The notes beneath the pieces are model-generated. The model was not told where the DNA came from, did not search any database, and was given only the letters and a program-made list of their open reading frames with translations. Below, piece by piece: positions 43,178 through 64,000 of a DNA stretch of 64,000 nt. This DNA comes from an uncultured Gammaproteobacteria bacterium (GTDB lineage Bacteria; Patescibacteriota; Microgenomatia; Levybacterales; GWA1-39-11): NCBI GenBank assembly GCA_964427615.1, contig CAYRUR010000003.1:44062-108061 (forward strand), given 5' to 3'. Each line of letters opens with the position of its first letter. Within the stretch, counting starts at the first letter, position 1. A program made the position numbers and the translations under genes.

Positions 43178-43214
43178 GAATGTACGGAGATAGGATATAC
43201 CAAAAATATAACCT

Positions 43215-43457
43215 ATGTCAAGCTCAACGGATTATAACAATAAGCAAAACAGAAAACAACCCATAGCATGGGGAGACCTATCAAAAGAACAGCAAAACAT
43301 CATTATTGATCTTCTTTCCTTGGTTAAGATTATTAACAAATTCGCTGCTACCTCTGACTTTGCAGAGAAGTTTTCTACTCATTCACAAACAATAGAATAT
43401 CAGGCCAGAAAAAGAATAAATGCCTACGAAAAGGCTAGAAAGGAAACGATTAAATAA
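43215..43457 (+). CDS. hypothetical protein (first ORF of phage-derived region)
   Basis: 80-aa ORF. Confidence 0.3.
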   Translation: MSSSTDYNNKQNRKQPIAWGDLSKEQQNIIIDLLSLVKIINKFAATSDFAEKFSTHSQTIEYQARKRINAYEKARKETIK

Positions 43458-43458
43458 T

Positions 43459-44106
43459 ATGAAGCCTAAGTACATGAGAAGTATAGGTGGTAGTAGGGAA
43501 AGATTCGTAGAGTTTATGCTCGATACTCCATACCCATTAATCATATTCTTTTTCCTAGCTCTTATAGCTGCAGCTATCGTAAGAGGCATTACCTTACATG
43601 AAGAGGGACTAGTAAAGAGTGCAGAAGCACAAGAGTTGCTAAGTCCTATTCCAACACCAACCATAACACCAACTCCTACTGCAACGCCTACACCTACAGA
43701 AGAACCTAAGAATGAGAGGGTTCAAAAGTTGAAGAGCTTTTTGATAGAGCAAAAATCACCTCTTGCTCCTTATGCAGAACTGATTGTAGAGCAAGCAGAT
43801 AAATATGACATCTCATGGACATTAGCAACATCCATCTCTGGTAAGGAGTCATCTTTCGGTAAAGAGATTAAACCAGGATCTTACAACGCATGGGGAGTGA
43901 TGGCATGGGACGCAAACGGTAAGAGATATATTAGAAGCTTTAACTCATGGGAAGAAGGAATTATTTTTGAAACTAAGCTTATCTCTAAACATTATAGAGA
44001 GAACATGAACAAGGCTATACAAGAAAAATACTGCCCTAGCTTTGAATGCTCACCAACATGGGTACAGACCGTAACAGAATTTCAGGAGGCTATCAACAAT
44101 GAATAA
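43459..44106 (+). CDS. membrane-anchored peptidoglycan hydrolase-like protein (glucosaminidase/FlgJ-type domain) with PT-rich linker; frame opens at 43420
   Basis: TM helix, (PT)n linker, then ...DISWTLATSISGKESSFGKE...NAWGVMAWD...FNSWEEGI resembling Pfam Glucosaminidase. Confidence 0.4.
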   Translation: MKPKYMRSIGGSRERFVEFMLDTPYPLIIFFFLALIAAAIVRGITLHEEGLVKSAEAQELLSPIPTPTITPTPTATPTPTEEPKNERVQKLKSFLIEQKSPLAPYAELIVEQADKYDISWTLATSISGKESSFGKEIKPGSYNAWGVMAWDANGKRYIRSFNSWEEGIIFETKLISKHYRENMNKAIQEKYCPSFECSPTWVQTVTEFQEAINNE

Positions 44107-44234
44107 ATTTATAGAAATTACAGAAATAATGAACAGACTTATCGCAAGCACAAAACTAGATTTAATTAAGAGTTGGGTTCTTCTTAATCAAAGTCTAGAA
44201 GTCTTACCAGAAGTAAGGCACGGCTTAGAGGAGG

Positions 44235-44465
44235 ATGCAGAAAATGAATGATAAAGATTTTTACGATACTACATTTTTATACGACACGCTCTATTTATTA
44301 GAGAATCATTTAACTGATTTAACTCAGTGGAGTGTATATAACGAAGACGTATGTGAGGAAGACATTTTAGAGTTGAGAGAAAAATTTGAACAAGTAAAGA
44401 AAATACTCTTTTTAGTAGGAAAAACGCTTGATAGTGATACTGAAATGGAAGGAGAAAATGAATAA
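44235..44465 (+). CDS. hypothetical phage protein
   Basis: 76-aa ORF. Confidence 0.3.
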   Translation: MQKMNDKDFYDTTFLYDTLYLLENHLTDLTQWSVYNEDVCEEDILELREKFEQVKKILFLVGKTLDSDTEMEGENE

Positions 44466-44670
44466 AAAACTTATAACAATCAAACTGATGGACCGTATTA
44501 GTGAGATTTATGACGACCAAAGAATTACTGCTGAGGAGGCACTAGACCTGATGCACATGGTATCGGAGTTATCCCGACTGGCACAGCACAAAGGCATAGA
44601 CGGACTGAACGGCGAGGAAGAAGCCAAACCACTGGCCTCAATTAGTCAGGAAGGGGGAAGGGTTTTATGA
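44428..44670 (+). CDS. hypothetical phage protein
   Basis: 80-aa ORF overlapping neighbours by a few codons. Confidence 0.3.
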   Translation: MIVILKWKEKMNKKLITIKLMDRISEIYDDQRITAEEALDLMHMVSELSRLAQHKGIDGLNGEEEAKPLASISQEGGRVL

Positions 44671-45227
44671 GAGAAATCAAGTTTAGAGCGTGGGATAAAA
44701 AAACAAAACAGATTATTAAATATGTTACTCCGATAAATAATGAGTGGTGTATCACCTTTGTTAATAGATTTGGGATGACCGATACTTTTGACGGGGACTT
44801 GGAGTATATGCAATACACCGGCCTCAAGGACAAGAATGGGAAAGAGATATATGAAGGGGATATTGTGCGAGTCAAGCACGGTATCGGAGACGATGGAGAG
44901 GACTACTACTCAGAGGGATACTATCAGGTTTTTATAAGTAGCCTTTACGGGATCGAGTTGCGTTTTAAGCGGTTGATCAATAAGGATAAGCGAAATCAGT
45001 ACCCTATCTACACCACTCTCAGCTCTTATTACAACTCATTGGGTATTGATTATATGAGTCAATCCTTTGATCAGTTGGCAGTTTTGGGTACGTGGGGGGA
45101 GAACCATATTTCAGGCAATAGATGGAAGGAGAATCACTATTCAAACGACATTAAGGTCATTGGCAACATCTACGAGAACCCAGAGTTATCTAATAGCACA
45201 GAAGCATACGTAAGAGAAGAAAAATAG
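44667..45227 (+). CDS. YopX family phage protein
   Basis: N-terminus MREIKFRAWDKKTKQ is the YopX hallmark. Confidence 0.6.
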   Translation: MREIKFRAWDKKTKQIIKYVTPINNEWCITFVNRFGMTDTFDGDLEYMQYTGLKDKNGKEIYEGDIVRVKHGIGDDGEDYYSEGYYQVFISSLYGIELRFKRLINKDKRNQYPIYTTLSSYYNSLGIDYMSQSFDQLAVLGTWGENHISGNRWKENHYSNDIKVIGNIYENPELSNSTEAYVREEK

Positions 45228-45283
45228 TATGGACAATTATCAGAATTATCGCAATTTAGGAGAATACGACAACATCGACACTG

Positions 45284-46195
45284 ATGAGTGTGAAGATGAA
45301 GGAGAAGATCATGAGTAACTTATCAATTACACAATACGTAAACAACGACATTATCTTGAAAAACATTCAAGATGTTTTAAAAGACAGAACACCACAGTTT
45401 ATAACCTCTGTTGTGTCTTTAGTAAACAGCAGTGATGCATTAAAAGAGGCTGATAAAAAATCAGTACTAGGTGCATGTTTAACTGCAGCATCTTTGAATT
45501 TGCCAATTAACCAAAATCTGGGCTATGCCTATATCATTCCTTACAAAGATAACAAAAAAGGCGTAACAGTAGCTCAATTCCAGATGGGCTACAAAGGGTA
45601 TATCCAGCTCGCTATGAGAAGCGGACAATTTCAAACACTGAATGTTACAGACGTAAGAGAAGGAGAACTTAAAGAAGTAGATAGATTATCAGGGGAAATG
45701 AAATTTGAATGGGCTACTGAGAAAAGAGATTCACTTCCTGTTGTTGGGTATGTTGGCTACTTCAGACTTATAAACGGATTTGAGAAAAAGCTATATATGA
45801 CATCTGAGGAATTAAAAAAGCATGGTGTTAGATTCTCAAGCTCATATAAGAGGGGTTACGGACTCTGGAAAGATGACTTTGATGCAATGGCTAAAAAGAC
45901 GGTTATCAAGCTTCTGTTATCGAAATACGCTCCCATGAATACAGAGATGACTCAAGCTCAGGAAGCAGATCAAGCTTTAGTAACTGATAACGGATATGAG
46001 TATATCGATAACCAGAAACTTACTCCTGAAGAAGAAGCAGATATCAAAGAAAAGGAAAGAATAAAGAAGTTTATAACAGAAGCAAAAACACTTAAAAATC
46101 TAGAAGCTTGCAACACTGCTGTATATGACTCAACAGACCAAGAATTAATTGACATGTATGAAGCAAGAGTGAAGGAATTGGAGGGTAAAAAATAA
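45284..46195 (+). CDS. recT: RecT-family single-strand annealing protein (phage recombinase)
   Basis: ...SVLGACLTAASLNLPIN...GYAYIIPYKD...AQFQMGYKGYIQLAMRSGQF matches RecT family core. Confidence 0.7.
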   Translation: MSVKMKEKIMSNLSITQYVNNDIILKNIQDVLKDRTPQFITSVVSLVNSSDALKEADKKSVLGACLTAASLNLPINQNLGYAYIIPYKDNKKGVTVAQFQMGYKGYIQLAMRSGQFQTLNVTDVREGELKEVDRLSGEMKFEWATEKRDSLPVVGYVGYFRLINGFEKKLYMTSEELKKHGVRFSSSYKRGYGLWKDDFDAMAKKTVIKLLLSKYAPMNTEMTQAQEADQALVTDNGYEYIDNQKLTPEEEADIKEKERIKKFITEAKTLKNLEACNTAVYDSTDQELIDMYEARVKELEGKK

Positions 46196-46258
46196 TGGAC
46201 CACGATAGGTACTTAGAAATTGAGGCAGAAAGATTTACAGGAGAATATTACGACTTAG

Positions 46259-46489
46259 GTGATGAGGAGGAAGAAAATAATGAATAACTACTATTTTACA
46301 TTTGGACAAGTACATACACATTCTGTAAACGGAAAAACATTTGATAAGGACTGCGTGGTTTCAATAAAAGCTGGTTCTAGTGACTCAGCTCGTAGAAAAA
46401 TGTTTGATACGTTTGGACAGAAATGGGCTTCTCAATATGAAACTCAACCAGATATGAGATTTTACCCAGGAGGAATAATAACACTATGA
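46259..46489 (+). CDS. hypothetical phage protein
   Basis: 76-aa ORF between recT and exonuclease genes. Confidence 0.3.
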   Translation: MMRRKKIMNNYYFTFGQVHTHSVNGKTFDKDCVVSIKAGSSDSARRKMFDTFGQKWASQYETQPDMRFYPGGIITL

Positions 46490-47175
46490 ACACAATAGAC
46501 TTTACAAATTACAAATTCAGATCAAGCTCTTTACCTAACTTAATGGTTAAATCTCGCAGTAAATCAGATCCTTTATCTGAGACTACTAAAGCATATCTTA
46601 GAGAACTATGGATTAAAGAAATGTTTAAGCGTGAGAAGTACGACACAAAAAACAAGTTTACCGATAAAGGCATTGCTTGTGAGTCAGATAGTCTTGATTT
46701 AGTACAAATCGTTACTAAACAGACTTACTTTAAAAACAGAAAGGAACTATCAAATGATTTCATTACTGGCACACCTGATGTTATTTTAGAAGACTCAATT
46801 ATCGATATTAAAACTTCTTGGGATATCTGGACATATGGTAGCACCACAGAGGACAGCGCTAGAAAGACATACTACTATCAACTCTTAGGGTACATGTGGC
46901 TTACCAATACTAAAAAAGCAAGCCTTATGTACTGCCTAGTAAACACGCCAGAGGATATCATGAATGATGAGTTATATCGCTTGAGTTTTAGATATCCAGA
47001 AATTAATGAAAGTGATGAAAAGGCCAATAAGTACAAAAGAAACTATATCTTTGATGATATAGATCACACTCTGAGACTTAAAAAATATGACTTTGAATTT
47101 GTAGAAGAAGATATCAACGAATTGCAAAACAAAATTGTACTTGCCCGTGAGTACATGAATGGTTTGAGTTTGTAG
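46486..47175 (+). CDS. YqaJ-like PD-(D/E)XK recombination exonuclease (partner of RecT)
   Basis: FITGTPDVILEDSIIDIKTS = D...E.K nuclease motif; position immediately after recT. Confidence 0.55.
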   Translation: MNTIDFTNYKFRSSSLPNLMVKSRSKSDPLSETTKAYLRELWIKEMFKREKYDTKNKFTDKGIACESDSLDLVQIVTKQTYFKNRKELSNDFITGTPDVILEDSIIDIKTSWDIWTYGSTTEDSARKTYYYQLLGYMWLTNTKKASLMYCLVNTPEDIMNDELYRLSFRYPEINESDEKANKYKRNYIFDDIDHTLRLKKYDFEFVEEDINELQNKIVLAREYMNGLSL

Positions 47176-47214
47176 ATTTATAAAAACTGTCCTAGCTTTT
47201 TTGGGAAGCTAAAT

Positions 47215-47484: not shown

Positions 47485-47486
47485 AT

Positions 47487-48356
47487 ATGAAATGGTTTAA
47501 ACACGAAGCAGACGCTTCACAAAATAAAAAGGTCAGAAAGTTGAAGAGAATGTACGGGGCTGAAGGCTATGCAGTATATTTTCAAATCGCTGAGTTTATA
47601 GCAGAAGACATTGAAAAAGACAATGTTAATGATTGGGGATTCTTACCTCATGAGTATGACGATATGGAATTCTTAGCAGATGAAGTAGGTATAGAAGATG
47701 TGGAGAAATTAAAAGAAATTATAGAGTTCTGCTGCAGCAATCCAGTGAATTTATTTGAGAAAAGAGAGGGAAGAATTTATTGTGAAAGAGTATTAGAACA
47801 GGCAGATGAATATACTCAGAAATTAATTAAACAAGCGAAAGGTAATTTAGGTGAAAAATCGGGAGAAAGTGAGGCTAAAGAAGAGACTGAATCAGAAGTG
47901 AATCGGGATAGTATCGGGAGTAAATCGGGAGACAATCAAGAGTCAGTCGGGCATAAGAAGAAGAAAGAGAAAGAGAATCAGAATGAGAAAAAGAAAGAGA
48001 ATGAAAAAGAAGAAAAGGATTTAAAAAAATCCATTGCTTATTTGTCTAGTTTTCCTTTAGAAGATTTTGCAGAGATTGATATTACGGAAAAACAACTGAG
48101 ATTAGAGGCTCAAAAAGCGCTCAACTGGCTCAAGTCAGAAGGCAAAAGAAAGAAAGATTATCAAGCATTTTTTGTTAATTGGATTCTAAGAAACTACAAA
48201 ATGAAGTCAGAGGTAGTACTTTTCCCTGAGCATAAAAAAGTTCCACCAGAACAGCGAGTCTCAAACGAAAAAATGCAACAGCTCAGGCAACAGTTAACAG
48301 GAATCGCAAAATCTAAGTCAGTCAATGGAGAGGAGGTGAAAAACAATGGAGGATAA
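47487..48356 (+). CDS. Lin1244/Lin1753-like (DUF4373) N-terminal domain protein, phage replication initiation/organiser-type; K/E-rich low-complexity middle
   Basis: N-terminus MKWFKHEADASQNKKVRKLKRMYGAEGYAVYFQIAEFIAE matches DUF4373. Confidence 0.55.
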   Translation: MKWFKHEADASQNKKVRKLKRMYGAEGYAVYFQIAEFIAEDIEKDNVNDWGFLPHEYDDMEFLADEVGIEDVEKLKEIIEFCCSNPVNLFEKREGRIYCERVLEQADEYTQKLIKQAKGNLGEKSGESEAKEETESEVNRDSIGSKSGDNQESVGHKKKKEKENQNEKKKENEKEEKDLKKSIAYLSSFPLEDFAEIDITEKQLRLEAQKALNWLKSEGKRKKDYQAFFVNWILRNYKMKSEVVLFPEHKKVPPEQRVSNEKMQQLRQQLTGIAKSKSVNGEEVKNNGG

Positions 48357-49508: not shown

Positions 49509-49520
49509 GTTTTACTAGAT

Positions 49521-49886
49521 ATGAAACTAAAAACACATAAAACAGAAACAAGTATAGTGCATAGCCTAATAGAGTTTCTTAACTATAACGGGTTTGCAGT
49601 ATGGAGACAAAATACAGGAGGAAGAACAGAAAAAAATAAAGACGGTTCCGAAAGATACATCAAATTTGGCATGACAGGACAAAGCGATATTATCGGTATC
49701 TATAGAAAAACTGGCAGATTCGTAGCTATAGAGGTTAAAAAGCCTGGAAAGATAGATACCGTCACACCAGCACAACAGAGCTTTTTAGATTATGTTTTTT
49801 GGGCTAAGGGTATCGCTTTTGCAACAACTAGTATTGAAAATACTGTACACCAGTTAAGGAATTTTGGAATAGATATAGAAGCCTAA
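49521..49886 (+). CDS. VRR-NUC domain nuclease
   Basis: ...GQSDIIGIYRKTGRFVAIEVKKPGK...TPAQQSFLDYV pattern (PD-(D/E)XK, VRR-NUC). Confidence 0.55.
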   Translation: MKLKTHKTETSIVHSLIEFLNYNGFAVWRQNTGGRTEKNKDGSERYIKFGMTGQSDIIGIYRKTGRFVAIEVKKPGKIDTVTPAQQSFLDYVFWAKGIAFATTSIENTVHQLRNFGIDIEA

Positions 49887-50035: not shown

Positions 50036-50623
50036 ATGAAAATCTTATACATAGACACAGAAACAACAGGACTAGATCCAAAAATTAACGACATCATTCA
50101 ATTATCAGGAATGATTGAAATAAACGGGGAAATTAAAGAGACATTTAACTTTGATGTAAGACCTGTAAATATAGAAGCTATCTCAGAAGAAGCACTTAAA
50201 GTCACAGGTAAAACAAAAGAAGAGATACTAGCCTACCCTGAAGCAAGTGAGATATACCACAAGTTTGTCAGAATGCTTGATAGATATGTCTCCAAATACG
50301 ATAGAACAGACAAGATGTATGTTGCAGGATATAATGTGCGGTTTGATGTTGAGTTCCTAAAGTCTTTCTTTGATAAAGCAAATAATCCTTATTTTGGCTC
50401 ATACATCAACTGGAAGACTGTTGATCCTATGCCCATTATGCACTTCTTAGAGTACATAGGGATGTTGTCACTTGAGAATTATAAGTTAAGTACGGTGTGT
50501 GAATACTTTAAGATTCCACTTCAAGCGCATGACGCTATGAGCGATATTGAGGCTACAAGGGCATTGTTAAAACATTTGGAAGGTGGATTTTTAGTGAGGG
50601 ATTTTGAGGAGGTGCAGGGATGA
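50036..50623 (+). CDS. DEDDh 3'-5' exonuclease (DnaQ/DNA pol III epsilon-like)
   Basis: LYIDTETTGLDP (Exo I), GYNVRFDVEFL (Exo II), HDAMSDIEAT (Exo III). Confidence 0.7.
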   Translation: MKILYIDTETTGLDPKINDIIQLSGMIEINGEIKETFNFDVRPVNIEAISEEALKVTGKTKEEILAYPEASEIYHKFVRMLDRYVSKYDRTDKMYVAGYNVRFDVEFLKSFFDKANNPYFGSYINWKTVDPMPIMHFLEYIGMLSLENYKLSTVCEYFKIPLQAHDAMSDIEATRALLKHLEGGFLVRDFEEVQG

Positions 50624-50937
50624 AAGTAGAAACATTTATTAAAAAATTAAAACTTATAGAGAATTATCATATACAAACTTTTTTTGATAAGGAATATGGC
50701 GGTGCTTGTCCTTGCTTCTCAGGCAGTAAAACAATTGACGGTAAAAAGTTATATGTGTGGGGAAGGTGTTGGAGAGTCTCGGATAGTTTTGGTGCTCAAG
50801 AGCTTCATGTAGGCGGAGAACTTGATAAAAAGACTATTAGAGTTATTGCAAAGATCATTAAAAAAGCTCTTGATGCTCAAAAATGGTACAACACTTATCG
50901 TATTTATTACCATGATTTAGATTTTTTTAGGAAGTGA
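50620..50937 (+). CDS. hypothetical phage protein
   Basis: 105-aa ORF, start overlaps previous stop. Confidence 0.35.
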   Translation: MKVETFIKKLKLIENYHIQTFFDKEYGGACPCFSGSKTIDGKKLYVWGRCWRVSDSFGAQELHVGGELDKKTIRVIAKIIKKALDAQKWYNTYRIYYHDLDFFRK

Positions 50938-51094
50938 TTATGAAAGTATATAAAGACAAAAATATAAATGTTTGGCTAGTTGATTTAGGCATATTTCATG
51001 TTCTGTTTTATAAATGGGGTTTTGGATTAGATAAGCGTGAGTATCTTAAAGAATTTAATGTTATAGGTTATAAGAATATTTTTAGAATTAGAAT

Positions 51095-51769
51095 ATGAAC
51101 GACTTAAAACCATTTAAACATGGACAGGAAGGAACACATTACGCCTGTGTTGAGATGATAAAAAAGTACGGTAGTAAGGTTGGGTGTTGTGGATGCAATA
51201 AACATATGTGTGACGCTTATCCTTGGGAAATAACAACGCTAGAACCACGTCTAGCAGACGAACAAACCAAACAAGAAAAAGGAGGATTCTTAATTGATGA
51301 TCGTCCTGGTGTTATTCCCAAAAAAGCAGCTTTGAAAATGAAGAGGATGTTAGAGAAAAAGGGGTATGAGGTTAGCTTAGTTTCTGAGATAGATATGGAA
51401 GAAAAACAAAACAAAAATAACACAACTGATTGGGAAAAGCTTATGAGCAAACCGTATCACGAATGGAAAAATGACGAGGACATTATTGTTAGAACGATTT
51501 ACTTCATAAATCAACTTTCGCCACATAACCTGTGGAAAGGGTATGAAGCAGTACAAGACCTTCTCAAAAAACGAGATGAACAATACGCTATGGAAATAGC
51601 AACGTATGAATCGAATGAAGAACAACGGATGACTGTATACAAGGCAGGGTTGATAGAAGAAATTGAGGGTATGAAAAAGAAAATGTGTTGTGATGAATGC
51701 GATTCATTTGACGATAAAAATCAAACATTATCACATGTTATTGAGCGCATAAAGAAATATGGAAAATAA
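51095..51769 (+). CDS. hypothetical phage protein with Cys-rich N-terminus
   Basis: CVEMIKKYGSKVGCCGCNKHMCD and C-terminal CCDECD motifs; 224 aa. Confidence 0.4.
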   Translation: MNDLKPFKHGQEGTHYACVEMIKKYGSKVGCCGCNKHMCDAYPWEITTLEPRLADEQTKQEKGGFLIDDRPGVIPKKAALKMKRMLEKKGYEVSLVSEIDMEEKQNKNNTTDWEKLMSKPYHEWKNDEDIIVRTIYFINQLSPHNLWKGYEAVQDLLKKRDEQYAMEIATYESNEEQRMTVYKAGLIEEIEGMKKKMCCDECDSFDDKNQTLSHVIERIKKYGK

Positions 51770-51947
51770 GAAAAAAATAATTATTGTTTACATACCAAAC
51801 GAACAACACGCAGACCATGTAGGTGAACCAGTGATAGAAAGTTTTGTTTCTAAGGAAAAAGCATTTATAAGAAGTGTGGAGTTAAAAGAAAGGTTACAAG
51901 ACCATCAGATATATCAAAGAATTGATTTAACAATAAAAGTTGATTAA
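51759..51947 (+). CDS. hypothetical small phage protein
   Basis: ORF only. Confidence 0.25.
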   Translation: MENKKKIIIVYIPNEQHADHVGEPVIESFVSKEKAFIRSVELKERLQDHQIYQRIDLTIKVD

Positions 51948-52022
51948 TTATGGAAATTATAAGTTATATATTATTTTTAACTCTATGTGCAATCATAGGT
52001 TGGGAGTTAGGAAGAAGATGAT

Positions 52023-52238
52023 ATGAAACAAATAATGTATGCTCTCTACACAACTAAAAACTCTAAAATGCCCAGACATATTTATGCACGAGCAAAAGAT
52101 GCGAAAAGTGAGCTTTTTGCATTACGCAAAGTAGGAATTACATGGGGAATAATTGAAAGGGTAGAAGTAACCAAAAAAAACGAGACTGCTTATGATATTT
52201 GTCACCATGAGTACAGAAAGGAGAAGCATGAAAAATAA
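52023..52238 (+). CDS. hypothetical small phage protein
   Basis: ORF only. Confidence 0.25.
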   Translation: MKQIMYALYTTKNSKMPRHIYARAKDAKSELFALRKVGITWGIIERVEVTKKNETAYDICHHEYRKEKHEK

Positions 52239-54743: not shown

Positions 54744-54994
54744 AAGAAGAAAATACTAAAAAATGTAGTTTTGAGCCATTTGATACGTATAAAGGAAAAA
54801 CATTATTTTTTACACTAGGAATACAACCGTCCTATTTTAGACCATTACTTGCAAGATGTAAAAAGTGTAAAACTAATCATGTTTTTAGTTATAAAGAGGC
54901 GTGTGAGAGGGATCAAGAACCAGCTATTGACACGAATTATGTAGGTGTACTTACCCATCCTGATAGTGGTGGGTTTCCAGCATACAATGAGTAA
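54740..54994 (+). CDS. hypothetical phage protein
   Basis: 84-aa ORF, overlapping start. Confidence 0.3.
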   Translation: MKEENTKKCSFEPFDTYKGKTLFFTLGIQPSYFRPLLARCKKCKTNHVFSYKEACERDQEPAIDTNYVGVLTHPDSGGFPAYNE

Positions 54995-55076
54995 TATGAA
55001 AAAAGAAAAAAATCAATATAAATAGATTAAAAAATAATTTTTACACACTTTGAGAAAGTATAAAAAACATTAAACA

Positions 55077-55373
55077 ATGAAGCAACACATAACTATACAA
55101 CAATTTAACGAAACATCAGAAAAAGGTAAAAGAGTAATAAGAAAATGGTGGTACTCTAAAGGGTATCAATATAATGACTTTGATGCTGACGGAAATGAGA
55201 TAGAAGATCCTCTTATGTCAATTGGTCAAATGATCGAATTTTTAGGTGAGGACTGGGTGGATTACGTTTTTGTAGCAATGAAAGATGGAAGTATATTGTT
55301 TAATTTCCAAGGTGAGTTATGTGATGCACTTTATGAGGTTGTGAAGAAGGTAGCAGAAAGCGATATTAAATGA
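55077..55373 (+). CDS. hypothetical phage protein
   Basis: 98-aa ORF. Confidence 0.35.
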   Translation: MKQHITIQQFNETSEKGKRVIRKWWYSKGYQYNDFDADGNEIEDPLMSIGQMIEFLGEDWVDYVFVAMKDGSILFNFQGELCDALYEVVKKVAESDIK

Positions 55374-55444
55374 TTTATAACAGTAGTGAAGAGATGATAT
55401 AATAAAGATAGATAAAACGTTGTGGGAACTATTAGCAACGTTTT

Positions 55445-56161
55445 ATGCAATTTAACCCAACCGACAAAAGCAAGAGTATAATAGCCGATATAGATTTTCT
55501 CCTCTTCGGCTCTGGTGAAACCTTTAACAATGACTATTCCCTTCCTGACAGAACGAGAAATGTTAATATCTCTTGGGATGAGGCAGTCGCAGAACTCTAC
55601 AAAGCCGACCCAAACTATAAGTGGGATGATACTACAAACGCTGATTTTCCCATTGCCACCATTGACTTAGAAGCAGGACAAGACCACTATACACTCCTTG
55701 ATACAGCTCTTGTAATTCATAGAGTACGTGTTAAAGACAGAAATGGCGAGTATAAAACGCTTACTCCTGCTCTGCGAAGCGAATTAACAGACAGCGAACT
55801 AAATGCAACAGGTACACCTGATAAATATTACAAAATGGGTGGTGCTGTATTTCCTGTGCCTGTACCTGATTATGGTGCAGCAGAGGGTGTAGAACTTGAA
55901 TTCCAGAGAGGAGCAAATCATTTCTCCACTACAGACACCGATAAATCTCCTGGCTTTAACCCACAATTTCACCAATTTCTATCAATTGGCGCAGCTTTGC
56001 GTTATGCGTTAGCTAATGGGATGGGTAAAAAAGTATCTCAATTAAGTGCTTATAAAGAGGCAATTAGAGCCTCTATTAAAGAACACTACGAACGTAGAAG
56101 CCCTGATGAAAAGCCAAGATTAAAGTTAAGAAGAGAGAATCCAAGGAGGTTTGGGCTATAA
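55445..56161 (+). CDS. hypothetical phage structural-module protein
   Basis: 238-aa ORF at the head of a run of tightly packed large ORFs. Confidence 0.4.
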   Translation: MQFNPTDKSKSIIADIDFLLFGSGETFNNDYSLPDRTRNVNISWDEAVAELYKADPNYKWDDTTNADFPIATIDLEAGQDHYTLLDTALVIHRVRVKDRNGEYKTLTPALRSELTDSELNATGTPDKYYKMGGAVFPVPVPDYGAAEGVELEFQRGANHFSTTDTDKSPGFNPQFHQFLSIGAALRYALANGMGKKVSQLSAYKEAIRASIKEHYERRSPDEKPRLKLRRENPRRFGL

Positions 56162-56163
56162 CT

Positions 56164-57951
56164 ATGGCAAAAGAAATACAATCATCATTGTTTAAGCGAA
56201 TTGAGAGTGAGATTAATACATATATCTCTGGTAGAGTTGAATTAAGTCCTGGTGTATTTTTCTCTCAATATAAAACGATTAATAGAATATATAGGTTTAA
56301 GAACCGTGATCTTTCCGGATCTAAGATCAACTCAGACCTTTCTTATAACTACTACTTTGATATTATTTCTCCCCGTGTTGATAGTGAAGTAAAAAACTTA
56401 CGGTTTGATACAAAGCATATTCTTGTGTTCTCCGAAGATCCACGTAAAGACTTTGCTGCAGTGTTTCTTGCCAATGCTTCTCTAAAAAGCTGGATGGCCG
56501 AAAACGGTGAAGACGAGAAATTAAAAGAAGCAGTTGAGGAGTTTTCAGGGAATGGCAATATCGGATTTAAAAAGGTAGCAGGAGGATATGAGATTGTTGA
56601 CGCTCAAAACACCTACATTACCAACCAAATAGCAAAAACTGTTGATGAAACAGATATTATAGAACGTCACGAAATGAGTCCTTCACAAATTAAAAGGATG
56701 ACCGAATGGGATCAGGACATTGCAGATGTGGTGATTAAAGACCTTGGTGACAAGAGCTTTACTTCCTCTAAGGACACAACACCGATTTCAACGACAGGGA
56801 AAAAGTATGAAATCTTTGAATTTACCGGAGAAGTTTCAGAAAAAGAGTTTAATGAAGTTAAGGGTCTTGAAGGTGGAGATCCAAATAAATACTTTCTTGC
56901 AAAAGTTATTGTTGCAGGTCTAAGTCAAGAGGGTAAGGGAGAAAAATATCCGTTGTTCGTTGAAAAACTAAAAGGAAAGATGTCTGATTACTACAAGTAT
57001 GCGCATAGAGGCCGATATGAGGGAAGATTCTGGAGAGTAGGAGTGTATGAGTTACTATTTGACCACCAGATTAGGGCTAATGAAATAGGTAATCAATTAT
57101 CTCGTGGACTTGAATGGGCTTCAAAAGTAATCTTTCGAAGTAGAGACTCTAAAGTATTACAAAATATAAGGGCGGACCTTGACAATGGGGACGTAATAAT
57201 CACAGACGATCTTACCCAAGTTAATGTTAGGCTGCAGGGGCTTGACCAATTAATTGCTGATTGGAATAGGCTCATGAACGATGCTGATAGACTTGCTAAC
57301 TCAATGGAGGTTACACGAGGTGAATCTTTACCTTCCGGTACTCCGTTTCGTATGGGGATTCTTTTAGACCAGAACGCAGGAAAGATATTCTCACACATAA
57401 GACAGAAACTCACACTCCCCTATAGGAGTGTCTTTAGAGAGTGGGTTATTCCTGAACTACTTAAAGACATGAAAGCTAAAGAAGTTTTTCAGTTTTTAAA
57501 CGATCAGACAATTATTGAACAGTTACAAGAAATACTGGTGCAGTCTTGGTATATGAATAATCTAGTCGCTATTGGACCACATACTCAAGAAGTGGCTGAG
57601 GCTATTAAGCAACAGAAATTAGAAGAGATAAAAAAGAAAGACATAACTATTAAAAACGTCAAAGAGATATGGGCAAACATTAGACCTAGAGTGTTTGTTA
57701 CTATCACTGGTGAGAATTACGACTTGCAAGATCAACTGCAAGACCTTGTAAGCTTCCTAAACCTTGAACAAGATCCAAGAAGAATTGAGTGGATTCTGGA
57801 TACTATCTACAAAACTAGAGGCATTCCAATCCCTCCAAAACAAGAGCAACAACCAATAGAAAACCAATTAACAGGGAATACACCCACACAAACTAGACCA
57901 GAAAGACAGTCCCCAGAACAAAGAGAGGCAGAACAGCCGATGATCCAATAA
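56164..57951 (+). CDS. large phage protein (595 aa), possibly portal or other virion protein; family not recognised
   Basis: Size and position in late-gene-like block only. Confidence 0.4.
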   Translation: MAKEIQSSLFKRIESEINTYISGRVELSPGVFFSQYKTINRIYRFKNRDLSGSKINSDLSYNYYFDIISPRVDSEVKNLRFDTKHILVFSEDPRKDFAAVFLANASLKSWMAENGEDEKLKEAVEEFSGNGNIGFKKVAGGYEIVDAQNTYITNQIAKTVDETDIIERHEMSPSQIKRMTEWDQDIADVVIKDLGDKSFTSSKDTTPISTTGKKYEIFEFTGEVSEKEFNEVKGLEGGDPNKYFLAKVIVAGLSQEGKGEKYPLFVEKLKGKMSDYYKYAHRGRYEGRFWRVGVYELLFDHQIRANEIGNQLSRGLEWASKVIFRSRDSKVLQNIRADLDNGDVIITDDLTQVNVRLQGLDQLIADWNRLMNDADRLANSMEVTRGESLPSGTPFRMGILLDQNAGKIFSHIRQKLTLPYRSVFREWVIPELLKDMKAKEVFQFLNDQTIIEQLQEILVQSWYMNNLVAIGPHTQEVAEAIKQQKLEEIKKKDITIKNVKEIWANIRPRVFVTITGENYDLQDQLQDLVSFLNLEQDPRRIEWILDTIYKTRGIPIPPKQEQQPIENQLTGNTPTQTRPERQSPEQREAEQPMIQ

Positions 57952-57955
57952 TAAT

Positions 57956-59389
57956 ATGCAAGATGTAGATTTCAAAATTGAGTTAGATCAATTCAATGAG
58001 GGTCTTAGTCCCTTAGCTCATGTTGATGATAAAACATTTATAGGAAACAGGGGACAGGCAAGCGAGATGAAAGCGGATATTATCTCAAAGCCCGGATTTA
58101 TTACTCAAAGCCCTGCACTAGCAGACCTTACCAATGGCAATCAAGCAGGAGTGGTTGACCAGCTTATTAGACACATACTCGATAAACCAACAGCAGTAGA
58201 TACTACCTACGCTGTAGGCACTACAAAATTGTTTAAGCTCTCATCGACAGAGGTTATAAGCGGTGGTACTCCTTCATGGCCTCAAACAATTGCAAATATG
58301 GTAGAGGGCGAGAGTGTTATAAGACTTAAAGCTAACTTATTTACCTTCTATAACAAAGCATCAGGTGGTGATATCGCAGCAATGCCTTTATCTACAGAAG
58401 TTATTGACGCAACATGGGGGAGTGTTACGGATCAAGCACTTGAAAAAGCACCACATCCATCAGCTGCTAAAGAAGATGTTATGGTGTTTGGTAATGGAAG
58501 ATATTTAGGGGTATATGTTGAAGGATTGAATATACTTGATACCCAAAAACTAGACTTTGGTGAGGGAAGTGAGGTAGCAGACGTAGTATTCCACTCAAAT
58601 GTTTGGTGGATAGCCGTTAATTACGGAGAAGGAAAGAGAGGGCAAATATATCTTTACGATGGATCTGCAGCTTCTAACATTTTATCTGATGAAGCAGGTG
58701 TAGGGGACCAGAGAATAGGCTTTCTTTATGTTCTGAATGGTGTAATTTTTGTCTCTTACGAATCTAAAAGCTCTGATGGGTATAGTATAGGCTATCTATC
58801 AGGGAAAATCATTAAACCTCTAAGGTATTTTACTGGCAGTTTACCAGACCATAGGCAAAAGGCTTTATATAAAAATACAATAATCTCTGTATCCGGCCAA
58901 GATATCTACTCGTGTGGTGCTTCTGTCGGACAACTACCTATCCAAATATCAAGATTAGCAGACGGAGGACACGCAAATATAGGAGGTATTGCTGCTCCTT
59001 TTGGTACTCCACTTATTGCCTCAAGCGATGGCGACACCAATCATAGACTTGCTAAGTTTGACGGTTTTTCAACTGACTCTAACTGGAAGAGTATCTTTTT
59101 AGATACTGCTCGTGGCGTAGATTTAGGGAAGATTGTCAAAGTAATCGTCCAAACAAAACCTCTTGCGCTAAATGCACGATGCGATATCACTCTAGAGGGG
59201 GATCAAGGAGCTGAAACATCAAGTGCCCTAGTAGTATCGGGAGAAGGCAAAACATGGCATGTTTTTAAGAGCATCGATCTAAAAGCAGTCCCAAACGTAA
59301 GAGTGGTAATTAATTATGCCAACGGGGACACGATAAATGATTGTCCGGTTAGGAAAATAACGTTACTTGGTAATTTTGTAGAAAGGTAA
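57956..59389 (+). CDS. phage structural-like protein (477 aa), Gly/Ser-rich beta-type composition
   Basis: ORF, composition typical of tail/baseplate proteins; no family recognised. Confidence 0.4.
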   Translation: MQDVDFKIELDQFNEGLSPLAHVDDKTFIGNRGQASEMKADIISKPGFITQSPALADLTNGNQAGVVDQLIRHILDKPTAVDTTYAVGTTKLFKLSSTEVISGGTPSWPQTIANMVEGESVIRLKANLFTFYNKASGGDIAAMPLSTEVIDATWGSVTDQALEKAPHPSAAKEDVMVFGNGRYLGVYVEGLNILDTQKLDFGEGSEVADVVFHSNVWWIAVNYGEGKRGQIYLYDGSAASNILSDEAGVGDQRIGFLYVLNGVIFVSYESKSSDGYSIGYLSGKIIKPLRYFTGSLPDHRQKALYKNTIISVSGQDIYSCGASVGQLPIQISRLADGGHANIGGIAAPFGTPLIASSDGDTNHRLAKFDGFSTDSNWKSIFLDTARGVDLGKIVKVIVQTKPLALNARCDITLEGDQGAETSSALVVSGEGKTWHVFKSIDLKAVPNVRVVINYANGDTINDCPVRKITLLGNFVER

Positions 59390-59393
59390 AAAT

Positions 59394-59753
59394 ATGAAAA
59401 AAAGCATCGTCATACCAATTCTTAACAATGAGTACAAAGCTGTCGTGTGTTGGGGTGATCTTAAATACCTTAGAAAGTTAATGAGAGATTGGGGGTATGA
59501 GGAGCCAGCAGAGCAAAATGACTTGGATGAGAGAAGAGGGGTCTGTTTTTCTCACAAAGATTGTGCTCCGATTATTGCTTTACCAAGATATCCCAAAACA
59601 GCAGAGGAGATAGGAACACTGGCACATGAGGCTTTCCATGCCGTAGACCATATCTTTGACAAAATACGAGCATATAAAAGTGATGAAGTATTTGCTCACT
59701 CTGTAGGAGCTATTGTAAGGCAAGTATTAGAGCTTAAAGAAAGGAAGAAATAG
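59394..59753 (+). CDS. hypothetical phage protein
   Basis: 119-aa ORF. Confidence 0.35.
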   Translation: MKKSIVIPILNNEYKAVVCWGDLKYLRKLMRDWGYEEPAEQNDLDERRGVCFSHKDCAPIIALPRYPKTAEEIGTLAHEAFHAVDHIFDKIRAYKSDEVFAHSVGAIVRQVLELKERKK

Positions 59754-60071
59754 TATGAAAAGAATCAGTATTAATTTTAATGAGTATGGCAGGTTTTTTA
59801 AACTGGTTATCAACCACTGTGGGATAAGGTTTTTGATAGGTATCGCAGTTCCTTATCCTTGGTATGGGAAATATGTAACCCCGTGTAGGTTTGAAGAGCC
59901 TAAAACGAAATTTCACATCAGATATAAAGTTTTACTTTTTAATTTTTAACATGGCAAAAGCAATAAAAGATAGGAAAAGAAAATCTGGAGCCTGCTCAAT
60001 CTGCACTGGAGAATGTATGTTGCATATCAAATTCTGGTTTATAGATATAGTGTTTGACTAGGATAAGCAGT

Positions 60072-60410
60072 ATGGCAAAAACAAAAGATATAACACCACA
60101 ATTTAGATTAATGACAGCTGAAGAAGAACTTGCAATGCCTTTTGTGCAAGAATCAATGGGAATGTCTATGGGAGGACTGTCTATGTACTCTAACTCTTTT
60201 AAGAGGGGGTATGGAGACAATGTATTTGGATCAAATGAGCAGGGAATATGGTTAGGTGCTGCAGATTACGAAAACGCACCACTTAAGATGGGTATGGACG
60301 GAAAAATAAATATCTCCGGTAGTAATGGTGTAAACTCCTCTCTCCTTACCGAGAAAGGGTTAATTTTGTACAAAAATGATCTCCCTCAAGTTGTTATTGC
60401 AATAATTTAA
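60072..60410 (+). CDS. hypothetical phage protein (Gly/Met-rich); frame opens at 60054
   Basis: ORF. Confidence 0.35.
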   Translation: MAKTKDITPQFRLMTAEEELAMPFVQESMGMSMGGLSMYSNSFKRGYGDNVFGSNEQGIWLGAADYENAPLKMGMDGKINISGSNGVNSSLLTEKGLILYKNDLPQVVIAII

Positions 60411-60412
60411 CT

Positions 60413-61627
60413 ATGCAAAATATTACAAGAATCGCTCTTCCTGGATATAACGCCCTAACAGATACAAATAGAGATCACTATAGTGTATTTGCTGATGAGG
60501 ATAATATTCTTATTAAAGAACTGCTTTCTGATGAAAGAAGCATTGCTGAATACAATGTTCTAGCAACAATCCCTCATAATTTAGGATACATACCTCTAGC
60601 GTTTGTTTGGGGAAACTTGTACTCAAGTGAAACAACCTGGCAATTGATTACAAATCAATTTAATGCTGTTACGGTGCCTCAAGTAATTCAGGCTGTAGAT
60701 ACAAAAAATTTATACATTTACAATTTTGGCGGTAGAGGATCAGACCTACCTACGTACTCACGAATTTTCTATGATGATATGTCTGAATTAGGAAATCCCG
60801 AAATAACAGAAGATTCAAACGTAGTTAAAATTGCCAGACCCGGTAAAAGTGCAGATTCTTTAAACCCTAATGACTACATCATTCACTCTTCTTTGAATAA
60901 TTTAAAAATACTTTACCAGGGTAAAAAGACTATAAGCCTTAATCCTGACTTAAATTCATTTCCTCATGATGCTAATATCGATAGTCCATTTCAATGTTTG
61001 GTTTTTGTAAAGTTTCCCGATGGTAAGACCACACTAGCTGGATACCCCCCTACAATGTCTTATGACGAAAGTAAGGGCGTTACTGTGCGTGTAGACGGAA
61101 CAAACATATATGTTGTTTCTTCTGGAAGCTTTACAGCTGAGTTTAGTTACTTTTTCTTTGGGAAAGGAAAGGATGGGTTAATTACTCTAGGAGGACCAAC
61201 TATATCAGTAGCAAAAGACGGTATTAATGCTCTAACTAATACTAACCCAGACAACTTTAATTTTCATAGTCATTTTCCAACTCTTAAGTATTATATGTCA
61301 GACAAGTATGACATGGGTTCAGTCAGTACTACAACTGTCAAGCTCATTCCTCACGGTTTGGGGTATACTCCTTTTTTTGCTGGGTACGTGAGTGATCTTT
61401 ATCAGTTTAATGTGTTTAATAATAATAGTGAGCCAGTATATGCCTTAACCCCATACTATTTAGGAAGATCAACGTTTGGAAGTCCAAATAAAGACGTAGG
61501 TGCTTTTATTTATGCAGATAGTGATTATCTCTACCTGAAAGCGTACTTTCAACCCAATGCATTAGGCACCAATTTTCCATTTAATAAGTTTTTTTATAAG
61601 ATATTTAGAAACAACCTGAACTTATAA
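60413..61627 (+). CDS. phage tail fibre/receptor-binding-like protein with internal two-fold repeat (ALPGYNALTDTNRDHY... / AKDGINALTNTNPDNF...)
   Basis: Internal duplication read in translation; no family recognised. Confidence 0.4.
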   Translation: MQNITRIALPGYNALTDTNRDHYSVFADEDNILIKELLSDERSIAEYNVLATIPHNLGYIPLAFVWGNLYSSETTWQLITNQFNAVTVPQVIQAVDTKNLYIYNFGGRGSDLPTYSRIFYDDMSELGNPEITEDSNVVKIARPGKSADSLNPNDYIIHSSLNNLKILYQGKKTISLNPDLNSFPHDANIDSPFQCLVFVKFPDGKTTLAGYPPTMSYDESKGVTVRVDGTNIYVVSSGSFTAEFSYFFFGKGKDGLITLGGPTISVAKDGINALTNTNPDNFNFHSHFPTLKYYMSDKYDMGSVSTTTVKLIPHGLGYTPFFAGYVSDLYQFNVFNNNSEPVYALTPYYLGRSTFGSPNKDVGAFIYADSDYLYLKAYFQPNALGTNFPFNKFFYKIFRNNLNL

Positions 61628-61693
61628 GTGCAAATAGATGATATAATAAAAACATACCAATAAAACGTTGTGGAACACATTTCATAACGTTTT

Positions 61694-63088
61694 ATGGCAT
61701 ATACCGCACAACAACTAGGATTAACAGCGCCAGCAGGAGGGTTTGAGGATGGAGGTTGGTATGGTGGACATAATTACGATGCTGCTACCCAAACCTTTGG
61801 AGAAAAAAACCAAATCTGGTCTAAATCTCTTCCTAGCTCTGGACAACAAGTATCCCAAGAAGTAAGACAGCAATCAGCAGACGCTCAAGGGGTCTCGCTA
61901 CAAGACTTTGACACCTTTCTTTTTGGGGCTAACGCTAGTAATCTGCAGGGAAACCAAAACGTTCCTTTCTCTTCAGGAGCGAATGAAGAATATCTTAAAG
62001 GGATTAGTGCTCAAATGGAGGCAGCCCGTAAAGCACTTGAGGACTCACTGAGAAAACAGAGAGAAGAAAACGATTCAAGACTTGCAGAACTAAGGAAGAA
62101 AGAGCAAGAAACACTTGGTAAAGTTGATGAACTTACTACTCCATTCCGTGAAGACCTAGAAAATACAGAGCGAGAGCGCTTACACATAAATAAGAATTTT
62201 GAAGAAAATCAAAAATTGGTTGATGAGTTAGATAAACTCTTGACCGAAGGAAATGAATATATCCGCCAACAAAAAGAAGTTACCGGACTTGCTGCAATAC
62301 GCAATCCAAGAGTACAAAAAGCAATGGAAGACGTAATAGCCCGTGTGGGTGTTATCGAAGCTGTAATTAATGCCCGAAACGGCCAAATAGCTCAGGCTGA
62401 AAATATGATTGACCGTACTGTTAATGCTATAACGCAAGACAGGATGGATAGAATCTCTTACTACGAAACTGTCTTAAACCTCAACAATCGTGATATCGTA
62501 TCGCTTGATGCAGATAATAAGAGAATTGCTGAAGAACAACTAAATATTCTCAAAGTAGATCTCTCACGTGCACAGGCAACAGTTGATTTCATAAAAGAAA
62601 AGATGGTTGACCCTCAATTTGCTTCACTAATGGGAGAAGCTGGTGTGTCCTTGAATATGAGTGTGGGTGAAATAAACTCCAGACTAACGCAAGCTCAAAT
62701 AAATCGTGAGATTAGAGAGCAGGCAAACAAAATAGCTTTGCAAGGTGGAGTTGCTGTAGCAGATCCTTCTTTGGTACCAGAAGATCAATTGGTAAGCTTC
62801 ACTGACTCACGTGGACAGGTTCACTACTATAAATTACCAGCAAGCAGTGGTGGAAGCGGTAAGGTTAGCGAGACTGACTATGTTGAAGCCTTAAAGCAAG
62901 ATGCAAGAAGTGGACTAACACTAAGTCAAATATTTGCAATTTACTCAGGGTATCTTGATCCCGACCAAATTTATCAACTATACAATGCAAGCAGTATATA
63001 TGGACCAGATAAAGGAAACGTTTCAAACCTTGCAAAGTTTGGTGTTACCCAACCTAAGTCAAGTGATTCGGACGAGGATCTTTTCTAA
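61694..63088 (+). CDS. phage protein with long central coiled-coil region and Gly-rich N-terminus
   Basis: Heptad-rich stretch ~100-330 aa; 464 aa. Confidence 0.4.
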   Translation: MAYTAQQLGLTAPAGGFEDGGWYGGHNYDAATQTFGEKNQIWSKSLPSSGQQVSQEVRQQSADAQGVSLQDFDTFLFGANASNLQGNQNVPFSSGANEEYLKGISAQMEAARKALEDSLRKQREENDSRLAELRKKEQETLGKVDELTTPFREDLENTERERLHINKNFEENQKLVDELDKLLTEGNEYIRQQKEVTGLAAIRNPRVQKAMEDVIARVGVIEAVINARNGQIAQAENMIDRTVNAITQDRMDRISYYETVLNLNNRDIVSLDADNKRIAEEQLNILKVDLSRAQATVDFIKEKMVDPQFASLMGEAGVSLNMSVGEINSRLTQAQINREIREQANKIALQGGVAVADPSLVPEDQLVSFTDSRGQVHYYKLPASSGGSGKVSETDYVEALKQDARSGLTLSQIFAIYSGYLDPDQIYQLYNASSIYGPDKGNVSNLAKFGVTQPKSSDSDEDLF

Positions 63089-63090
63089 AT

Positions 63091-64000
63091 ATGACAGTAA
63101 GTTCAGGTTTTTTAAAACATAGAGCTAGAGTGTTAGGGCTCAACGACGAAGAAAAGGAAGAAAAAATAAAACAAGAGTTTTCAAGGCTTGGAAAGGGTTT
63201 CTTGGAAAATAGACAGCAAGTTCTCAGCACAGCAACAAGGAAATCCCCACCTAAAAAACAGGTTATACAGGACGAGAAGCCAATAGTTAAGGAGGAAGAT
63301 GAACCAGGGGGGATTATTCAGGGAATTACGGATATAGTTAGAACAGTAACTCAGGAGGTTGTAAAACATTTCGAAGAGAAAGCACCAATCACAGCTTTAC
63401 TTCAAGGGAAACCACAGGAAGCTCTGTCAAGGCTAGATAGAACCGTAAGAGAATCTAATCTTGCAAGACTCACGCCAGAAATTGACTCTCAGACTGGAAA
63501 AATTAAAAGAGAGTCTGTTGAAGGTGCTATTGAAGGCGTAATGGATTTTGCAACTCTTGGAGTAGGGACAATCACAAAAAAGAGTTTTGAGGCTATTGCT
63601 AAAGCAACTGATCCAAAAACGATTAAAACAATTCTAAACACTGAAATATTCAAAAACGCTCCTGATGACTTAGTTAACGAGATTGCAAAACGATTCTCAA
63701 AAATCAATGATCCAAAAGTAATACAAAATGAATTAGATGAATTTAAGAAAATCAGCGATCAAAAGATTCCTTTGGAGAAGCAGGTTGACGTTCTGGATGA
63801 GGGGTCTTTGATTCACGACCAGCGTACACTCCTAGAAAAAGCACCAAAAGCAAAAACCCCAGAAACAGAAGTCCCCGCAGGTTTAGATCTTTCCGGTCAA
63901 CCTCTCCAATCATCATCCCAAAAAAGAGGACTGCCCCAATCCCAAGAAGGGTTAGAATTACAATCTCAAACATCCAATAGATTATACAACGAAGATCCAA
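63091..64000 (+). CDS. phage protein, 3' end beyond window (not in supplied ORF track because no stop within window)
   Basis: Frame starting ATG 63091 translated by hand to window end without stop (MTVSSGFLKHRARVLGLNDEEKEEK...). Confidence 0.4.
   Translation, partial: MTVSSGFLKHRARVLGLNDEEKEEKIKQEFSRLGKGFLENRQQVLSTATRKSPPKKQVIQDEKPIVKEEDEPGGIIQGITDIVRTVTQEVVKHFEEKAPITALLQGKPQEALSRLDRTVRESNLARLTPEIDSQTGKIKRESVEGAIEGVMDFATLGVGTITKKSFEAIAKATDPKTIKTILNTEIFKNAPDDLVNEIAKRFSKINDPKVIQNELDEFKKISDQKIPLEKQVDVLDEGSLIHDQRTLLEKAPKAKTPETEVPAGLDLSGQPLQSSSQKRGLPQSQEGLELQSQTSNRLYNEDP

Follow-up and report, generated by a model that had tools for sequence, protein, structure and literature searches.

A probable temperate Caudoviricetes prophage with a podovirus-type connector beside a tRNA-Arg(TCT) gene of a low-GC bacterium

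Genes at the locus

The window, by which we mean the full 64,000-nt stretch of contig CAYRUR010000003.1 analysed here, begins in the chromosome of an uncultured low-GC bacterium and passes, at about 43.2 kb, into a block of phage-type genes that runs on to its right-hand edge. We think it very probable that this block is the left ~60% of a complete-looking temperate prophage of the Caudoviricetes, integrated in the chromosome and furnished with a podovirus-type portal–adaptor connector. A preliminary description of the same DNA had already picked out a phage-derived region next to the genes for tRNA-Arg(TCT) and tRNA-His, running off the window and lacking a recognisable integrase, terminase or capsid gene. 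The features are collected in Table 1, in which coordinates past 64,000 are ‘window-equivalent’ positions, carried onwards along a contig that is 100% identical to the window where the two overlap.

From 43215 to 64000 all of the long open reading frames (ORFs) lie on the plus strand, those on the minus strand being short and nested inside plus-strand ones, and the tight packing noted at the outset is borne out by seven 4-nt start/stop overlaps (at 44667, 46486, 50620, 50934, 51095, 52780 and 54740). The early genes make up a replication and recombination module, in which the YopX, RecT, DUF4373 (now Lin1244_N) and DnaQ-like proteins of the preliminary description are all upheld by Pfam matches, and VRR-NUC, with homologues 38-40% identical in two IMG/VR relatives, is a borderline call. 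The Lin1244_N protein also matches PHROG 2562, ‘replication initiation protein’ (6e-10). The gene for the recombination exonuclease starts 290 nt downstream of RecT, so that annealase and exonuclease form a pair of the RecET/Red-like kind; this protein had been called a YqaJ-like exonuclease, of which the exonuclease part stands on its PHROG matches and the YqaJ part does not, given that the protein has no Pfam match and no YqaJ Pfam membership at E <= 0.01.

Table 1. Features of the host flank, of the element inside the window and of its continuation
Feature	Position	Strand	Basis or remark
UvrB (host)	3107-5110		
UvrA (host)	7314-10199		
P-type ATPase (host)	35154-37385		
tRNA-His(GTG)	42138-42210	-	ARAGORN, Rfam
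Rhomboid protease, final clear host gene	42265-42942	-	PF01694, E 1e-34
tRNA-Arg(TCT), intact, CCA encoded; left junction zone	43102-43177	-	ARAGORN; Rfam tRNA 65 bits
37-nt spacer, tRNA-Arg 5' end to first plus-strand ORF	43178-43214		
Five left-end ORFs (80, 228, 50, 76, 80 aa)	43215-44670	+	Assigned to phage from packing and strand alone
YopX-family protein	44667-45227	+	PF09643, E 2e-18
RecT single-strand annealing protein	45284-46195	+	PF03837, E 7.5e-46
Recombination exonuclease, RecT partner	46486-47175	+	PHROG 5715 ‘exonuclease’ 9e-44; weakly PHROG 434 RecE-like 1.7e-6
Replication initiation/organiser protein, Lin1244_N	47487-48356	+	PF14297 34 bits (cut-off 25)
VRR-NUC nuclease, borderline	49521-49886	+	PF08774 24.0 bits (cut-off 23.8)
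DnaQ/RNase T-like 3'-5' exonuclease	50036-50623	+	PF00929, E 3e-20
Nine small to medium ORFs (54-224 aa)	50620-53464	+	No family assigned
ORF-poor gap, ~890 nt, separating early from late block	53465-54353		No gene in Logan annotation
Three small ORFs (129, 84, 98 aa)	54354-55373	+	No function assigned
Head-to-tail adaptor, SU10 type	55445-56161	+	PF24175 SU10_adaptor 37.4 bits (gathering cut-off 27)
Portal protein, 595 aa	56164-57951	+	Family profile, AlphaFold model, Foldseek
Conserved virion protein, 477 aa, strand-rich	57956-59389	+	70-75% identical in three IMG/VR contigs, same synteny
119-aa protein in tail module	59394-59753	+	HEAFH (HExxH) metallopeptidase-like motif, read from translation
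118-aa and 404-aa proteins	60054-61627	+	404-aa ORF at 60413-61627
Coiled-coil virion protein, 464 aa	61694-63088	+	20 homologues in relatives including MW202577.1; conserved across phage group
LPD38 protein, N-terminal 303 codons of 1203 aa	63091-64000, runs off window	+	PF18857 LPD38 79.5 bits
206-aa ORF, N-terminal transmembrane segment, Cys-rich C-terminus	window-equivalent 66721-67341	-	Between 1203-aa gene and TerS
Small terminase subunit (TerS)	beyond window		PF16677
Large terminase subunit (TerL)	window-equivalent 67935-69416		PHROG 38 1.6e-99; PF03237 65.5 bits
Scaffold-like protein, charged, 220 aa	beyond window		
Major capsid protein	beyond window		PHROG 267 8.5e-14
HNH/NUMOD3 endonuclease	beyond window		
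Collagen-like tail fibre, 625 aa, CBM_5_12 domain	beyond window		PHROG 5073
Holin-like transmembrane protein	beyond window		
Lysin, 394 aa, C39-type	window-equivalent 76809-77993		PF13529 Peptidase_C39_2, PF03412
Membrane protein, 85 aa, start only on extension	right after lysin		

The virion module

The late block includes an adaptor of the SU10 family, the mark of a podovirus-type connector; its gene lies directly upstream of the portal gene, and its homologues in IMG/VR relatives, 63-71% identical, adjoin the portal as well. The portal ORF gives no direct Pfam, PHROG or PDB match from its single sequence, and its identity emerged from the family to which it belongs. Indeed, an exhaustive HMMER search with this ORF gathered 677 relatives, PF23899 SU10_portal is matched by 25 of 75 aligned family members (best 9e-13), and PDB entry 9vyf, ‘Portal protein’, is matched by the family profile (8.8e-4). 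The AlphaFold model derived from the family alignment (predicted local distance difference test score, pLDDT, 86.2; predicted template modelling score, pTM, 0.81) was then compared with the PDB by Foldseek, and its best match is the SU10 portal 7z44 (2.4e-13), followed by T7, Pa223, VP1, cyanophage A4 and N4, every one of the top 50 matches being either the portal chain of a phage or a tail complex that contains a portal. In addition, the homologue in the viral genome MW202577.1 (45% identical) stands directly after TerS and TerL, which is the classical position of a portal gene. By its modelled fold, then, this ORF is a portal of the short-tailed-phage type. The adaptor–portal pair implies a short-tailed virion, and we would expect the particle to be of that kind.

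Six large late ORFs had been listed as belonging to no assignable family, and a profile or structure search for portal, MCP and terminase among the ORFs at 55445-63088 had been recommended; adaptor and portal now leave the list, and the 477-, 404- and 464-aa ORFs still lack a fold or family. Between the portal and the 1203-aa gene stand five genes that we put down to the tail or to internal proteins. The 477-aa protein has no Pfam, PHROG or PDB assignment in single-sequence or profile searches and a single-sequence AlphaFold model whose pLDDT of 36 is too low for use, and its position after adaptor and portal makes it a candidate nozzle or tail hub. For the 119-aa HEAFH protein the sole match is PHROG 1365 (2e-5), a family without an assigned function. 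Neither the 118-aa nor the 404-aa protein has a family match, and the latter meets only partial matches in relatives (~30-46% identity, split across several ORFs), which marks it as the variable part of the tail module and makes it a candidate receptor-binding protein. Compared with the PDB, the profile of the 464-aa protein returns coiled-coil noise only. The 1203-aa LPD38 protein, of which the window holds the beginning, resembles the C-terminal portions of phage proteins of very great length (PHROG 14770, 1.6e-91) and is a candidate ejected or internal virion protein of the ‘large polyvalent’ type.

Continuation beyond the window

Extending the contig, as the preliminary description had advised, recovers terminase, capsid and lysis genes. 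The extension is Logan contig SRR7082966_1091, 26,201 nt long and 100% identical to window positions 51874-64000, which takes the element on to window-equivalent 78,074, where both of the Logan contigs that carry it stop at the same base. Past the 1203-aa gene come, in order, a minus-strand 206-aa ORF, TerS, TerL, small ORFs (one with a SAP domain), the scaffold-like protein, the major capsid protein (MCP), the HNH endonuclease, the fibre, the holin-like protein and the lysin. The MCP sequence matches ‘major head protein’ PHROGs 267, 283 and 544 (8.5e-14 to 1.7e-5), and TerL and the portal fold together place the element among the tailed phages. Because TerS, TerL, the scaffold-like protein and the MCP all lie at 67.5-72.6 kb, the apparent lack of terminase and capsid is an artefact of the window edge: the statement that integrase, terminase and capsid are missing is true inside the window, but fails for terminase and capsid once the element is followed further. 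Each gene essential to morphogenesis, packaging or lysis is a long ORF free of interruptions.

The 206-aa ORF is the sole opposite-strand gene in the 35 kb read; it has the look of a moron, whose product might serve in lysogenic conversion or in exclusion. The lysin is a predicted cysteine peptidase of the Peptidase_C39_2/YvpB type with a long coiled-coil C-terminal extension. We considered it as a marker of the phage group and ruled it out, as its IMG/VR matches and a 42.7-kb circularly permuted phage with GroEL/GroES share the lysin only; its N-terminal domain recurs as a lysin in unrelated phages and has distant homologues in many Chloroflexi chromosomes. The 85-aa membrane protein, next after the lysin, is also encoded on the 129,677-bp NCBI contig; its JGI homologue sits on a 3.9-kb contig and is followed by small minus-strand genes without recorded Pfam annotation, each of them too short for an integrase.

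Relatives and gene order

The virion module is common to more than 50 IMG/VR contigs and to one GenBank record, and to no cultured phage. A search with the 477-aa protein found three IMG/VR contigs of 37.8-41.7 kb that share the adaptor–portal–477-aa synteny at 63-75% identity, and whose gene order (adaptor, portal, 477 aa, ..., 464 aa, TerS, TerL, ..., MCP) is that of the window element; a search of IMG/VR with an MCP alignment found 76 loci, about 50 of them with an MCP identity of 42-76%. Since the virion genes recur in IMG/VR contigs and in MW202577.1, a circular genome, the genes of this region are viral and not conserved chromosomal ones, which is the finding that would have told against a phage had it come out otherwise. 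‘Poorly sampled’, as the preliminary description would have the phage type be if its host were CPR-like, is right in that no relative has been cultured and the best TerL match among GenBank phages is 36.5% identical (Pseudanabaena phage Pam1), and wrong in that metagenomic relatives are numerous.

MW202577.1 (Caudoviricetes sp. ctPCi537, from Manatee Spring, 39.6 kb, circular, uncultured) stands alone among GenBank phage records in sharing these virion genes, and no other is matched by MCP and portal. The likeness extends to the portal (45%), MCP (53%), adaptor (32%), scaffold-like protein (32%) and 464-aa protein (41%). It differs in having a TerL that is not detectably similar, different early genes on the opposite strand, no annotated integrase and the canonical order TerS, TerL, portal, scaffold, MCP, adaptor, whereas in the window element adaptor and portal stand upstream of TerS and TerL. 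The group has two gene orders, that of the window element and the canonical TerL, portal, scaffold, MCP, adaptor, and judging from the sequences compared the two are a block rearrangement within one virion-gene family. In the window lineage the portal gene follows the adaptor gene, ~10 kb away from TerS and TerL; sister contigs are canonical.

Searches with TerS and the lysin led to two related prophages. The first (locus L006) lies on a 1.2-Mb contig (ERZ761592 NODE_1 / JGI 3300005673) and is identical in sequence to contig DBDU01000027.1 of ‘Patescibacteria group bacterium UBA924’, with a TerL 72% and an MCP 59% identical to those of the window element; the second, on the 295-kb contig CAZYTL010000001.1, has an MCP 67% identical, and its locus stops short of TerL on the left. 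Both are chromosomally integrated and share with the window element the scaffold-like and 147-aa proteins and the N-terminal domain of the C39-type lysin (58-63%), but their fibres and the C-terminal part of their lysins are different.

Among known phages, the closest in connector architecture is Escherichia phage SU10 (Kuravirus; PMC9509320), whose adaptor family is matched above the gathering score and whose portal (7z44) is the best structural match of the portal model. Portal identity is nevertheless ~12%, no SU10-type nozzle, needle or fibre is recognised in the window element, and SU10 is a lytic coliphage whereas the window element is integrated in a low-GC, probably Candidate Phyla Radiation (CPR), genome.

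The junction with host DNA

Host and phage are physically joined at the left-hand junction, which the window shows and which Logan contigs of two runs reproduce independently: a 4116-nt contig (run SRR7082966, with a duplicate in the second run) equals window positions 41191-45306 at 100% identity and spans rhomboid, tRNA-Arg and YopX unbroken and without branching. The source is a metagenome assembly and tRNA genes are common misassembly points, so one might suppose the join to be a chimera, the phage being free or from another organism in the sample, but an independent k-mer-based assembly that gives the same junction in two runs with no break at the tRNA, a GC content of 0.367 in the phage part against 0.360 in the host part, and a codon usage correlated between the two at r = 0.93 make that very hard to credit. 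Near 43 kb there is also an upward step in GC skew and in AT skew.

The tRNA-Arg gene points its 5' end (43177) at the phage block, whose first ORF starts at 43215, and the preliminary description was right to call this orientation atypical. What looks like the promoter of the tRNA (TTGACA-18-TATCCT, 43221-43192 on the minus strand, with a perfect -35 hexamer TTGACA) overlaps the 37-nt spacer and the start codon of that first ORF. We looked for an empty site and found none: the full tRNA-Arg sequence has zero exact matches in JGI metagenomes, a RecT query returned only unrelated phages, 34-48% identical, and the 228-aa left-end protein led to no relative in IMG/VR or among GenBank phages. No informative repeat of the left-junction sequence was found within 41-64 kb.

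Other features of the locus

For the five left-end ORFs a moron or host DNA could also account. The 228-aa protein among them combines a transmembrane segment with a linker rich in PT and a weakly matched domain of the glucosaminidase kind (PF01832, 26.9 bits, below the cut-off of 30.2), and has no homologue among IMG/VR or GenBank phages. In the middle of the element, three of the nine small to medium ORFs were scanned (50620-50937, 51095-51769 and 52192-52521) and have no PHROG match, 51095-51769 having no Pfam match either; of the three small ORFs after the gap, 54354-54743 has no Pfam match and 55077-55373 neither a Pfam nor a PHROG match. The gap between them (53465-54353) might encode a structured RNA or serve as a regulatory, replication-origin (ori) or packaging-site (pac) region: its segment 53465-53840 (376 nt) is more stably folded than shuffled controls (z = -3.59), and the gap as a whole has no Rfam match at E <= 1 and is not conserved among the relatives compared. 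An inverted repeat lies within it (53805-53835 / 53980-54010).

Besides the genes in Table 1, the host flank encodes a transglutaminase-like protein, a DUF2079 membrane protein, a Schlafen/AlbA_2 protein and an OmdA/DUF1905 protein. A host ORF at 41451-42083 (minus strand, 210 aa, no known function) contains two internal direct repeats within 41535-42028, one of 160 nt at 82% and one of 50 nt at 84% identity, with a spacing of 234-261 nt.

How might the element integrate?

In classical tRNA integration of the lambdoid or P4 type, the core of the attachment (att) site lies in the 3' part of the tRNA gene and the integrase gene sits beside the tRNA. A tRNA at the prophage boundary is common to that arrangement and to ours; unlike it, the window element is abutted by the 5' end of its tRNA, and its integrase would be at the far end by analogy with the relatives. 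In both related prophages, the lysin is followed by one or two small transmembrane ORFs, a minus-strand tyrosine integrase (PF00589) and then host genes. By the same token, a tyrosine integrase on the opposite strand slightly past 78 kb would integrate and excise the window element, which, going by the lengths of its relatives, would measure ~38-42 kb in all. With somewhat better than even confidence, and on the strength of this analogy, we expect an integrase module in the first few kb past 78 kb. The integrases of the two prophages are 33% identical to each other, which suggests that such modules are exchanged. If the integrase is indeed at the far end, the intact tRNA-Arg would mark the junction distal to it and turn its 5' end towards the element, which is a non-classical geometry.

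For the place of the crossover we consider three arrangements: it may lie beside the 5' region of the tRNA-Arg gene or inside that region; the tRNA-Arg may be phage-borne, with the junction 160 nt further left; or the tRNA may be a mere neighbour, with att elsewhere and possibly as far right as ~44.1-44.7 kb. At the integrase-proximal junctions of the two related prophages we found no tRNA or tRNA fragment (ARAGORN; Rfam at E <= 10). A GGGGGTTCGAATC string in L006 was tried as a tRNA remnant and rejected on manual inspection, as it forms no T-arm. The same locus has a direct repeat, CCTAGCCGGGGAG, at 12451-12463 and 12611-12623, in the 465 nt that separate the start of the integrase gene from its neighbour, and these copies could be arm-type sites of the integrase.

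Weighing the alternatives

Several observations weigh against an integrated temperate prophage of the kind proposed here. In the element up to 78,074 we see no integrase, excisionase, repressor or att repeat, and at least one close relative, IMGVR 3300037722_000170 (37.8 kb), has lysis genes that run straight into plus-strand early genes, with integrase absent from the ~96% of it that was covered; because this relative is without an integrase in the sequence read, not every member of the group need have one. The polarity of tRNA-Arg is opposite to that seen when a phage integrates at a tRNA 3' end in the classical way. The left boundary could shift by 0.9-1.5 kb, since the leftmost ORFs (43215-44670) are without phage homologues. 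Finally, the second related prophage lies in a metagenome-assembled genome (MAG) titled Gammaproteobacteria, at odds with a CPR host.

A more elaborate version of events would make the element a temperate offshoot of mostly integrase-less, uncultured podophages of Patescibacteria, integrated with reversed polarity either at tRNA-Arg(TCT) or inside its 5' part, and with its portal uncoupled from the terminase genes. We consider this combination doubtful; were integration into the 5' part true, the phage would supply the promoter or the 5' segment of the tRNA-Arg gene.

It is also unlikely, in our judgement, that tRNA-Arg(TCT) is itself phage-borne, with the true junction in the 160 nt between rhomboid and tRNA (42943-43101). 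The idea has its attractions, in that the tRNA is just 37 nt away from the first phage ORF, whose start the promoter-like site of the tRNA overlaps, AGA is the dominant Arg codon of the phage (57%), and Arg(TCT) is often among the tRNAs that phages carry. However, none of 11 relatives' loci contains a tRNA gene, this one lies on the strand opposite to every phage gene in the window, and AGA is the commonest Arg codon of the host too (44%), so that the host would need tRNA-Arg(TCT) itself.

That the element is integrase-less, defective or domesticated, having arrived otherwise than by its own recombinase and being unable to excise now, strikes us as distinctly improbable. Such a view is in keeping with the lack of any recombinase or integrase in the 34.9 kb of the element read (43215 to window-equivalent 78,074), with the integrase-less close relative, with an iterative jackhmmer search for integrase that found none in 55 IMG/VR loci, and with Logan contigs that are unbranched at the left junction and so give no evidence of an excised form in those runs. 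Against it stand the long uninterrupted ORFs of the essential morphogenesis, packaging and lysis genes, and the two related prophages, which have their integrase exactly where the sequence of the window element ends; relatives of 37.8-41.7 kb mean, moreover, that 3-7 kb of the window element is still unread.

The host

The host is probably a member of the Patescibacteria/CPR, as far as comparison with related prophages can tell, and its part of the window has a GC content of 36%. In keeping with a CPR host, the prophage most closely related to ours belongs to the UBA924 Patescibacteria MAG and lies on a 1.2-Mb contig, and the standard genetic code used in the element places the host outside the code-25 lineages. 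As to the labels of other MAGs, CAZYTL010000001.1 (295 kb) is assigned to an uncultured Gammaproteobacteria MAG, and CAYLKT010000003.1 (31 kb) to an uncultured Thermoplasmatales archaeon; for contigs with genes or a lysin of this phage group, both labels probably reflect the mis-binning of viral or CPR contigs or, for the former, perhaps a labelling problem. Prophages of Patescibacteria have been reported before, at ~44 kb in Paceibacteria and also in Saccharibacteria, Gracilibacteria and Absconditabacteria (PMC12455944), and by their description these too are ~40-kb temperate phages in ultra-small genomes.

What does the element mean?

Taken as a prophage, the element is an ordinary and apparently intact one, from a lineage that is uncultured and metagenomically common. 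The main value of the analysis lies in a correction, namely that the missing terminase, capsid and portal reflect the edge of the window and proteins too diverged to be recognised by eye. Its reversed tRNA polarity would be a modest but genuine curiosity if the integration mechanism proves to be its cause, and what interest remains attaches to the geometry of integration beside tRNA-Arg(TCT) and to a host that is probably a CPR bacterium. For the biology of these organisms, the element adds an apparently intact, chromosome-anchored case to the few temperate phages of ultra-small, probably CPR, bacteria, and for the metagenomic phage group to which it belongs it furnishes a likely link to a host, together with functions for the portal and the adaptor.

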